From a virus: a stretch of DNA of 64,000 bases. The notes beneath the pieces are model-generated. The model was not told the origin of the DNA. It saw nothing but the letters and a program-made list of their open reading frames with translations, and made no database searches. Below, one piece after another: positions 62,646-63,313 of this stretch. The stretch lies in the IMG/VR virus record IMGVR_UViG_3300009514_001427; one strand, given 5' to 3'. Position numbers and translations under genes: made by a program. How positions within the stretch are numbered: position 1 is the stretch's first letter; every line of letters begins with the position of its first letter.

Positions 62646-62687
62646 TCGGGATGACAAGATTTGAACTTGCGTCCTCTGGTCCCCCAG
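62646..62687 (-). pseudogene. tRNA-Pro-like 3' half (anticodon loop TGGGGGA through acceptor CATCCCG-A)
   Basis: CTGGGGGA-CCAGA-GGAC-GCAAGTTCAAATCTTGT-CATCCCG-A; acceptor complementary to 5' half at 63286..63313. Confidence 0.45.
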
Positions 62688-62708
62688 GTTCAAATCCATT
62701 CTTTCTAA

Positions 62709-62781
62709 TCAGGGCGAGAGGACTCGAACCTCCGCTCTCTGGTCCCCCAGACCAGCGCTTTGCCAACTAAGCTACGCCCTG
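62709..62781 (-). tRNA. tRNA-Pro (anticodon GGG)
   Basis: acceptor CAGGGCG/CGCCCTG, anticodon arm TGGTC-TGGGGGA-CCAGA, T-arm GGAGGTTCGAGTCCTCT. Confidence 0.8.
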
Positions 62782-63246
62782 TTTCCATTTATGAACCAAA
62801 TTATCATGAAGCCCCGCCTCTACTTCACGATGACAATTAGCACATAGCAGGACAGTTTTCTTAAGTTCTTTCAATATTCGATCCCAGCCCAAGTCAGCCA
62901 ATATAGTAGAGGTTAAACTGAACTCTTTAGTTGATGGATCGATATGATGAAACTCTAAAGCCCGAAGACATCGATTGTATTTGCATATTGAGCATCCACC
63001 ACCATGGCTGGAGATTAATTTGATTTTACGCTCTGTCCTTGCTTTTTTCTTCCACTGTTTTGTGGCAGGTGCTTTGGATTTTCGTTCTCGTCGGATTTCC
63101 AATTGTTTTGTATTGTGCTGTCCAAAAGGAGAACAATCTAAACAATATTTTCGTCTATTGAGATTTTTAGTAACTCCATCAATCTTAGTTCGATTCGGAA
63201 ATCGGGTTTCACATTTTTTACACGTAGGCATAATATAATCCTCCAA
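62767..63246 (-). CDS. HNH homing-endonuclease-like protein
   Basis: ALEFHHIDPSTKE...LLCANCHREVE, paralog of 47140..47619; GGAGG RBS; stop inside 5' end of tRNA-Pro(GGG). Confidence 0.8.
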   Translation of the reverse strand: MEDYIMPTCKKCETRFPNRTKIDGVTKNLNRRKYCLDCSPFGQHNTKQLEIRRERKSKAPATKQWKKKARTERKIKLISSHGGGCSICKYNRCLRALEFHHIDPSTKEFSLTSTILADLGWDRILKELKKTVLLCANCHREVEAGLHDNLVHKWKQGVA

Positions 63247-63285
63247 TGATTATATTCGCCGTTGTTTAGGTGGATTCCTCTTTTC

Positions 63286-63313
63286 CGCTCTTACCAGGCT
63301 GAGCTACATCCCG
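63286..63313 (-). pseudogene. tRNA-Pro-like 5' half (acceptor CGGGATG + D-arm only)
   Basis: CGGGATG-TA-GCTC-AGCCTGGTAA-GAGC-G then unrelated sequence; complementary to 3' half at 62646..62687. Confidence 0.4.

Follow-up and report, generated by a model that had tools for sequence, protein, structure and literature searches.

In the window, a 64,000-nucleotide stretch of viral DNA (IMG/VR record IMGVR_UViG_3300009514_001427) from a large phage, one gene of the transfer RNA (tRNA) cluster, a tRNA-Pro(GGG), was found as two halves on the minus strand, and between these halves lie a gene encoding an HNH endonuclease and a different, intact tRNA-Pro(GGG). This locus is likely to be the insertion footprint of a homing endonuclease cassette that bears a substitute tRNA. 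A preliminary description of the locus had offered two readings, the first being a tRNA gene disrupted by a mobile cassette composed of the HNH gene and the tRNA. This reading is supported by the recurrence of the arrangement, by a module shared with a related contig (L008; sequences other than the window are denoted by L numbers) and by intact homologues that possess the 5 nucleotides (nt) missing between the halves.

The interrupted tRNA-Pro gene and its cassette

Starting from the end of the release-factor gene (63320), the order on the minus strand is 5' fragment, leader, HNH gene, tRNA-Pro, spacer and 3' fragment (Table 1). The 5' fragment, CGGGATG TA GCTC AGCCTGGTAA GAGC G, comprises the acceptor 5' strand, U8 and A9, the whole D arm and G26. 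The 3' fragment, CTGGGGG ACCAG AGGAC GCAAG TTCAAAT CTTGT CATCCCG A, comprises the anticodon loop, the 3' strand of the anticodon stem, the variable loop, the T arm, the acceptor 3' strand and the discriminator A. The acceptor strands of the two fragments form 7 of 7 Watson-Crick pairs (the 3' strand lies at 62647-62653), and the D stem (4/4) and the T stem (5/5) are also fully paired. The gap is limited to nt 27-31, that is, to the 5 nt of the anticodon-stem 5' strand. Joined directly, the halves give no tRNA; with CTGGT inserted they give a canonical 75-nt tRNA-Pro(GGG) with a perfect cloverleaf. When the native flanking sequence was joined by brute force at every cut point and submitted to ARAGORN, none of the joins restored tRNA-Pro; given good acceptor, D and T arms, many joins pass this program, and brute-force joining is otherwise uninformative. 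The extent of both halves, the full complementarity of their acceptor strands, the shortage of only 5 nt and the presence of the HNH gene and of the intact tRNA-Pro between them had all been given in the preliminary description and are confirmed here.

The resident gene, of bacterial type and called here allele B, directly follows the release-factor gene, and its interruption falls between nt 26 and nt 32. Its fragments are presumably dead remnants, the tRNA function being supplied by the intact inner gene (allele A). An open reading frame (ORF) of 60 amino acids (62461-62643, minus strand) has its ATG 3 nt past the 3' fragment (CCCGA TT ATG).

The leader of the cassette starts with GAAAAGAGGAATCC (also written GAAAAGAGGAAT), a motif common to the tRNA-Ala locus of the window and to L008. 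A hairpin in this leader (about 63227-63260; -14.2 kcal/mol, z -2.75) covers the GGAGG ribosome-binding site and abuts the ATG. The ORF of the HNH gene opens at a TTG (63246), although the likely start is the ATG at 63231 behind GGAGG, and it ends with a TAG at 62767, 15 nt into tRNA-Pro and in its D loop. While the matches of the window HNH proteins to Pfam HNH and HNH_3 are weak (E 0.0074 with HNH for this one), the protein keeps all family-invariant residues, namely C80, C83, H95, H96, C130, N132, C133 and H134. Allele A is orthologous to the tRNA-Pro(GGG) of L008. Only the first 5 nt of the spacer that follows it are common to L008, and since the identity stops there, the module shared by the window and L008 ends within the spacer. 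A promoter and terminator scan of the Pro locus found nothing on its coding strand, and exact-protein look-ups with the HNH protein and a 538-amino-acid neighbour gave no match.

The HNH protein has 819 detectable homologues, the best of which (72% identical) is encoded by L008, a 71-kb metagenomic contig identical to L094. L008 and the window are syntenic, with 72-75% nucleotide identity, and have in common the order tRNA-Pro(GGG), Pro(CGG), Arg(TCT), Glu(CTC), Arg(TCG) and a vault-protein-like gene. At the Pro locus the homologous block found by blastn (window 63320-62704, L008 5649-6259) consists of the 5' fragment, leader, HNH gene and tRNA plus 5 nt, and starts at most 7 nt upstream of nt 1 of the fragment. 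Its flanks are unrelated on both sides, and synteny is back about 600 nt downstream. Homology that stops at the borders of the element is as expected of a free-standing homing endonuclease gene, which forms a discrete insertion or deletion relative to related genomes. The 5' fragment of L008, CAGGGCG TA GCTC AGTTTGGTA GAGC G, has the same acceptor strand as the tRNA behind its HNH gene and a different D arm, and no 3' half is present at this locus. The hairpin over the ribosome-binding site is retained in L008 through a compensatory change from A-U to G-C. L008 has a second HNH paralogue before tRNA-Arg(TCT), where the window has none.

Some further tRNA features of L008 deserve mention. Its tRNA-Pro(GGG) (6182-6254) has C in place of the near-universal U at position 33 (loop TCGGGGA). 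At 5142-5177 a tRNA 5' fragment, ATCCGGG TA GCTC AATGGTA GAGC G followed by GCTCGAAAAGA, abuts an intact tRNA-Asn and there is no HNH gene; it looks like the scar of a lost HNH element, since its GAAAAGA motif matches the start of the HNH leader. At 4896-4966 the halves stand in permuted order, a T arm and acceptor fragment (CGGCGGG A) being placed 19 nt upstream of a 5' fragment with complementary acceptor (CCCGCTG).

Intact counterparts of allele B exist in bacteria. Its 25-nt T arm and acceptor segment is found exactly in at least 120 bacterial genomes, mostly Bacteroidota and some Clostridia, where it belongs to uninterrupted tRNA-Pro genes with the acceptor CGGGATG. A Bacteroidota genome bin (L286), a Saprospiraceae bin (L199), Labilibacter (L197) and Carboxylicivirga (L250) carry CGGGATG...CTGGT CTGGGGG ACCAG...CATCCCGA, so that the pentamer of these intact Bacteroidota genes is the predicted one, CTGGT. 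The best match of the reconstructed allele B was L286, with about 69 of 75 positions identical by hand count (the aligner gave up to 67/75 among the sequences that it listed); for the 3' fragment, 41 of 42 positions are identical to the corresponding part of L286, also by hand count. An uninterrupted copy exists in a prophage-type viral contig (L093) as well. The tRNA match hints at a Bacteroidota host. Exact scans of viral contigs with the 35-nt Pro 3' half and with the conserved leader, and of metagenomes with the 28-nt Pro 5' half, gave no hits, and blastn against a phage collection matched only at the tRNA-Pro genes of unrelated phages.

Recurrence of the arrangement and other genes of the window

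Two more tRNAs of the window are preceded by HNH genes, and tRNA fragments, overlooked in the preliminary description, were found at both loci. That description had also noticed that the HNH stop codon falls within the first 15 nt of the tRNA at all three loci, which is correct (15 nt at Pro, 10 nt at Ala and Gln).

At the Gln locus the 5' fragment, TGCCCTG TG GTGA AATCGGTA TCAC A, now forms the 3' end of a 72-amino-acid ORF (45319-45537, minus strand), and the 3' fragment, TTGAA TGCGA CGTT CCAGG TTCAAGT CCTGG CGGGGCA G, abuts the intact tRNA-Gln directly. The acceptor strand of the latter fragment is 7/7 paired, with one G-U, to that at 45350-45356, and nt 27-33 are absent; judging from the remaining sequence the broken gene would have been a tRNA-Gln(UUG). 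The HNH protein belongs to another family and is 21% identical to that of the Pro locus. A hairpin (-19.3 kcal/mol) covers its ribosome-binding site, and its TAG stop coincides with U8-A9-G10 of tRNA-Gln.

The HNH gene of the Ala locus is a paralogue of the Pro one, and its product has a helix-turn-helix at the N-terminus. The ribosome-binding site is covered by a strong hairpin (-34.2 kcal/mol, z -6.1), and the TAG stop is again U8-A9-G10 of the tRNA. After the 5' fragment, GGGCTCA TG GCGC AGTTGGGA GCCT C (run together, GGGCTCATGGCGCAGTTGGGAGCCTC), comes a leader that opens in the same way as that of the Pro locus, with GAAAAAGAGGAG. This fragment is weaker than the Pro and Gln ones, having 3 of 4 pairs in the D stem and failing a strict D-arm filter, and the locus is one-sided, no matching 3' fragment being present. 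About 430 nt downstream of this tRNA-Ala(GGC) lies a decayed 69-nt pseudo-tRNA-Ala (46647-46715, minus strand), which has kept its T arm, acceptor 3' strand (TAGCTCC A) and ATGGCA loop core intact but has a degenerate D arm and anticodon stem. It overlaps the stop of one ORF, and the next ORF starts with CTCCA TT ATG, much like the 60-amino-acid ORF after the Pro 3' fragment. Small ORFs of the window use tRNA debris as coding or start context.

Motif scans of the 64 kb detected three orphan fragments with T arm and acceptor. Two of these three have, 640-670 nt upstream, an acceptor and D-arm fragment that pairs 7/7 with them, and inside both pairs lie an HNH gene and a tRNA of the same amino-acid specificity. 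A chance origin of the Pro and Gln pairs is excluded, because orphan fragments are rare, the pairs match 7/7 and each encloses an HNH gene with a tRNA for the same amino acid. Moreover, all three HNH-preceded tRNAs have upstream, just before the HNH leader, a 5' fragment for the same amino acid that ends at about nt 26, whereas the scans detected no such fragment beside the 13 window tRNAs without an HNH gene. The same nested layout is found around two unrelated HNH families (phrog_2255 and phrog_10822), and a hairpin over the ribosome-binding site is present in all three window HNH genes and in L008.

Table 1. Positions of the fragments, cassettes and intact tRNA genes at the three HNH loci of the window
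Feature	Coordinates	Strand	Basis
Pro locus: 5' fragment of disrupted resident tRNA-Pro(GGG), allele B, nt 1-26	63286..63313	-	sequence, D-arm motif scan and reconstruction
Pro locus: cassette leader, 54 nt	63232..63285	-	left-junction alignment and L008 sequence
Pro locus: HNH endonuclease gene, 154 amino acids	62767..63231	-	phrog_2255, E 5.8e-38
Pro locus: intact tRNA-Pro(GGG), allele A, acceptor CAGGGCG/CGCCCTG	62709..62781	-	ARAGORN; Rfam tRNA, 65.7 bits
Pro locus: 21-nt spacer TTAGAAAGAATGGATTTGAAC	62688..62708	-	blastn block with L008
Pro locus: 3' fragment of allele B, nt 32-73	62646..62687	-	sequence and orphan T-arm scan
Ala locus: 5' fragment, tRNA-Ala-like	47676..47701	-	left-junction alignment
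Ala locus: HNH gene, paralogue of Pro HNH	47140..47619	-	41% identity to Pro-locus HNH
Ala locus: intact tRNA-Ala(GGC), G3-U70 pair	47079..47149	-	ARAGORN; Rfam
Gln locus: 5' fragment of disrupted tRNA-Gln, nt 1-26	45331..45356	-	D-arm scan
Gln locus: HNH endonuclease gene	44765..45268	-	phrog_10822, E 8.3e-40
Gln locus: intact tRNA-Gln(CTG)	44704..44774	-	ARAGORN; Rfam, 59.3 bits
Gln locus: 3' fragment, nt 34-73	44665..44703	-	orphan T-arm scan

We also sought pairs of orphan 5' and 3' fragments with complementary acceptor strands, and two classes emerged. Pairs of the first class are 250-290 nt apart with nothing annotated between them, and one of these, in L023, is a confirmed group I intron. 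Those of the second class are 640-1100 nt apart and enclose an intact tRNA and an HNH gene; its members are the Pro and Gln loci of the window, L113/L115, L122, L123 and L161, and also L121 if one acceptor mismatch is allowed. At least five viral contigs besides the window therefore have a tRNA gene split around an HNH gene and a tRNA. L122 and L123 are broken in the anticodon loop, with little or no loss of sequence. L141, with an HNH gene, a tRNA-Gln and a 3' fragment, resembles the Gln locus of the window.

The one-sided form, in which a 5' fragment to nt 25 or 26 is followed by an HNH gene and a tRNA, was found in L008, L079, L030, L031 and L095. The tRNA is a tRNA-Met with identical acceptor in L079 and a tRNA-Leu in L030, where the HNH ORF overlaps it by 39 nt; in L031 the ATG comes right after the D arm, and in L095 a fragment with a differing acceptor strand precedes the HNH gene and tRNA-His. 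In every case examined the D stems of the orphan fragment and of the regenerated tRNA differ.

Relatives of these enzymes are often encoded beside tRNA genes. Relatives of the Pro HNH have tRNAs at 72 of 82 loci, and at 32 of the 82 the end of the ORF falls close to a downstream tRNA, from 39 nt within it to 26 nt ahead of it. In Pseudomonas phage PAK_P4 the annotated coding sequence of such a relative overlaps tRNA-Lys by 39 nt, and the tblastn matches of the window HNH include several records of Salmonella, Escherichia and Klebsiella phages of 110-124 kb, a size typical of T5-like phages. Relatives of the Gln HNH have tRNAs at 46 of 67 loci, the downstream one being most often a tRNA-Gln.

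Other observations were made on the same viral contigs. L022 (947-1599) has an HNH gene between two different intact tRNA-Asn(GTT) genes, with an ORF that runs 37 nt into the second. L123 (2740-3116), a 173-kb viral contig, has a full-length transfer-messenger RNA gene (RF00023, 91.8 bits) adjoining its HNH/tRNA-Gln cassette. Viral-contig tRNA genes interrupted by about 230-270 nt were found in L023 (1506-1787), L024, L046, L052, L066 and L077; the interruption in L023 is the group I intron (RF00028, 87.5 bits), and the others have the same geometry, those of L046, L052 and L066 scoring below the Rfam gathering score.

The release-factor gene of the window (63320-64000, minus strand) is RF1-like, with a PPT tripeptide and PCRF and RF-1 domains. 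It contains an in-frame TGA (63893-63895) at what we take to be the position of a sense residue, on the basis of an alignment by eye with RF1 and RF2 sequences. Genome-wide recoding of TGA was considered and rejected, as TGA ends 16 of 49 long ORFs and reading it as sense merges no real genes convincingly; the in-frame TGA could reflect a pseudogene, a sequencing error or programmed read-through. At 48132-50759 (minus strand) is encoded an 875-amino-acid protein with major-vault-protein shoulder and repeat domains, a vault-protein-like gene being unusual for a phage; it is kept in L008 (13219-15930). The cargo in 18530-29956, 30654-36231, 55404-56330 and 6078-7250 includes an ORF of 3808 amino acids, a glutamine synthetase, a formyltransferase, a FolD-like dehydrogenase/cyclohydrolase and two kinase/phosphatase fusions. 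The protein encoded at 55404-56330, a kinase-HAD fusion, resembles a polynucleotide kinase/phosphatase, since its L008 homologue carries a PNK3P domain.

Origin of the nested arrangement

The order at the Pro locus, where a cassette stands between the 5' and 3' halves of one gene, can only have come about by insertion into allele B. The endonuclease is pointed to as the cause because an HNH gene is always inside, because the junction consistently falls after the D arm and because inner and outer tRNAs are specific for the same amino acid. We propose that the HNH enzyme would cut uninterrupted tRNA genes of the target type close to where the D arm meets the anticodon stem, at about nt 26-33, and that the break would be repaired by copying from a genome already holding the cassette. 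The left end would pair with the 5' fragment of the donor, or through D-arm homology, and synthesis would then copy the leader, the HNH gene and the donor tRNA. Where donor and recipient match, as may be the case for Pro in L008, Met in L079 and Ala in the window, the element would consist of the leader, the HNH gene and its own nt 1-26; the displaced original nt 1-26 would be left upstream and the tRNA regenerated downstream. Where the recipient allele is too different, as is suggested for Pro and Gln in the window, copying would run through the entire donor tRNA, and non-homologous joining to a resected right end in the anticodon loop would leave both halves and a small deletion. A regenerated D stem that differs from the original could give resistance to re-cutting. 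The output of HNH protein would be held low in two ways, by the hairpin over the ribosome-binding site and by the stop codon inside the tRNA, as processing by RNase P would strip this codon from the HNH mRNA, in the manner proposed for segB of T4.

Several points weigh against this proposal. We infer the target of the enzyme from the junction positions only, and the right-hand junctions must be explained by non-homologous joining. The anticodon arm of allele A (CTGGT CTGGGGG ACCAG AG) matches that of the broken allele B at every position but differs from that of L008, which the simple model does not predict and which needs an extra conversion patch or a donor already bearing this arm. About 30 of 34 HNH+tRNA loci have no recognisable 5' fragment, so that either insertion into the tRNA is a minority outcome or the remnants decay fast. 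The preliminary description had suggested looking for an intact CGGGATG tRNA-Pro in relatives; such genes were found in Bacteroidota, but an uninterrupted allele B beside the release-factor gene was found in none of the relatives, those of the release-factor gene being only 45-55% identical and not syntenic, with no tRNA-Pro nearby.

It could also be argued that the locus owes its origin to recombination, duplication and decay of the kind usual in dense tRNA arrays, with microhomology junctions at the D arm and the HNH gene as a bystander. The D arm is indeed the most conserved stretch of DNA among tRNA genes, most HNH+tRNA loci are without a remnant, and debris without an adjacent HNH gene does exist, both in the window (the pseudo-tRNA-Ala) and in L008 (the fragments at 4896-4966 and 5142-5177). 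However, tandem copies cannot give the order 5' half, cassette, 3' half, this nested order is seen in at least five unrelated contigs with the HNH gene inside every time, and 5' fragments accompany 3 of 3 HNH-associated tRNAs against none detected at the other 13. We consider this explanation unlikely, though it deserves to be kept in mind.

The second reading of the preliminary description, a functional split or intron-containing tRNA from which the intervening RNA is removed by self-splicing or by RNase P/Z and ligation, appears very improbable and was abandoned. It could draw on the stems of the window halves, which are all still perfect, on L122 and L123 with their nearly complete halves broken in the anticodon loop, on the polynucleotide kinase/phosphatase-like protein encoded by both the window and L008, and on the true group I introns that interrupt tRNA genes in related viral contigs, such as that of L023. 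Yet an Rfam search of 62300-63700, made with the library that recognises the L023 intron, gave the intact tRNA as its sole match, with no intron or ribozyme family even at E<=10, and the non-coding sequence available (about 55 nt upstream and 21 nt downstream) is too little for a ribozyme. The 5' break, at nt 26/27, is outside the anticodon loop; nt 27-31 are absent and no native join yields a tRNA-Pro; the broken gene is redundant beside an intact tRNA-Pro(GGG); the 3' half is missing from L008; and the window proteins that were scanned showed no RNA ligase domain. A split tRNA of archaeal type was likewise rejected, as the flanks are linked only by an A/U-rich complement of 6-7 bp (GAATCCA / TGGATTT, identified by eye, no dedicated search for a bulge-helix-bulge being made) and the anticodon-stem 5' strand is absent; as a rebuilt anticodon stem this complement is too weak and wrongly placed.

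An integrase-type element that targets tRNA-Pro might have left the 3' fragment behind as a duplicated attachment site. This is suggested by the occurrence, in bacterial genomes and prophages (L091, L202, L215 and L224), of 3' fragments of the same tRNA-Pro that begin at the anticodon loop and form attachment-site-like repeats. We give this hypothesis hardly any credit, as an integrase fuses the resident 5' part to the 3' part of the element, whereas here the 5' part is orphaned and followed by the HNH leader. The tRNA inside the insert is, moreover, a complete one that represents another allele. In the neighbouring ORFs a Pfam scan revealed no integrase-like domain, and at the Gln locus, which has the same layout, an integrase is likewise missing.

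Relation to known elements and significance

Homing endonuclease genes in phage tRNA clusters are already known. SegB, a GIY-YIG homing endonuclease in the tRNA gene cluster of T4, recognises a conserved T-arm motif of tRNA genes and drives the inheritance of itself and of the neighbouring tRNA genes, and its stop codon at a tRNA processing site was proposed by the authors to limit expression (PMC2330249). It is also described as amplifying a tRNA-Tyr+segB unit, SegB homologues being enriched beside tRNAs (PMC13096335). The window resembles this system in having free-standing endonuclease genes amid phage tRNA genes, with the stop codon at or in a tRNA. It differs in that the enzymes are HNH proteins and not members of the GIY-YIG superfamily, and in that the junctions lie between the D arm and the anticodon loop rather than at a T-arm motif; segB stands between intact tRNA genes, and the accessible parts of these sources describe neither a split target nor an element-borne nt 1-26. 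The tRNA cluster of T5 contains ORFs of HNH-type site-specific endonucleases (F-TflI, II and IV; 2004 work as cited in PMC2330249), as does the window, although that citation, in its accessible part, makes no mention of insertion within a tRNA or of flanking halves.

Group I introns in tRNA anticodon loops (RF00028) likewise interrupt a tRNA gene and may encode an endonuclease, whereas here there is no ribozyme, the break is 5' of the anticodon loop, the exon is incomplete and the insert contains an entire tRNA. Integrative elements directed at tRNA genes also carry a piece of the tRNA, regenerate a functional tRNA and leave a displaced fragment; they use a tyrosine integrase and replace the 3' part, while the loci studied here have an HNH gene and no integrase, and what is regenerated is the 5' part in L008 and L079 and the whole gene in the window. 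Free-standing homing endonuclease genes of fungal mitochondria, for example in Allomyces atp6, supply the gene that they invade with a replacement for one piece, while the piece pushed aside persists as a pseudogene; cases of partial duplication are on record, and such insertions are tolerated because the element brings a substitute for the displaced part. This is the nearest parallel in logic to the window, in that a needed gene is disrupted and compensated by a substitute, with the displaced fragment beside the element; the differences are that those elements invade organelle protein genes and not phage tRNA genes, and that here an HNH nuclease is involved, with nt 1-26 or an entire tRNA as the substitute. 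In literature searches of incomplete coverage we found no description of a target tRNA left as flanking halves, of an element-borne duplicate of nt 1-26 or of an endonuclease and tRNA nested in a tRNA gene.

It is tempting to go further and to suggest, with somewhat less than even confidence, that large phages harbour a distinct, self-compensating type of HNH homing cassette, which would invade tRNA genes themselves, recognise the region of the D arm and anticodon stem, and carry nt 1-26 or a cleavage-resistant tRNA for the same amino acid. If this is true, the invaded genome would lose nothing, the leftover halves would serve as homology arms for the next invasion, and such cassettes would be a main driver of tRNA gain, replacement and allele turnover in phage arrays. 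As a more remote extension, the outer halves of L122 and L123 might be freed when the inner tRNA is processed by RNase P/Z, and then be re-ligated; for the Pro and Gln genes of the window this is effectively excluded by the absence of 5-7 nt.

The tRNA arrays of phages vary greatly, and how their tRNA genes are gained and swapped is poorly understood. The footprint described here is clean, recurrent and experimentally tractable, and it is not a new principle. These footprints suggest that the endonucleases act within tRNA genes, beyond the D arm, and that a substitute tRNA moves along with the endonuclease gene, the reconstructed allele B being the predicted target and allele A the predicted resistant form. 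The model of endonuclease-spread tRNA genes derived from SegB would thereby be extended to HNH enzymes and to insertion within the gene. For annotation they carry a warning, namely that orphan tRNA halves beside HNH genes are probably scars and not exotic split tRNAs.

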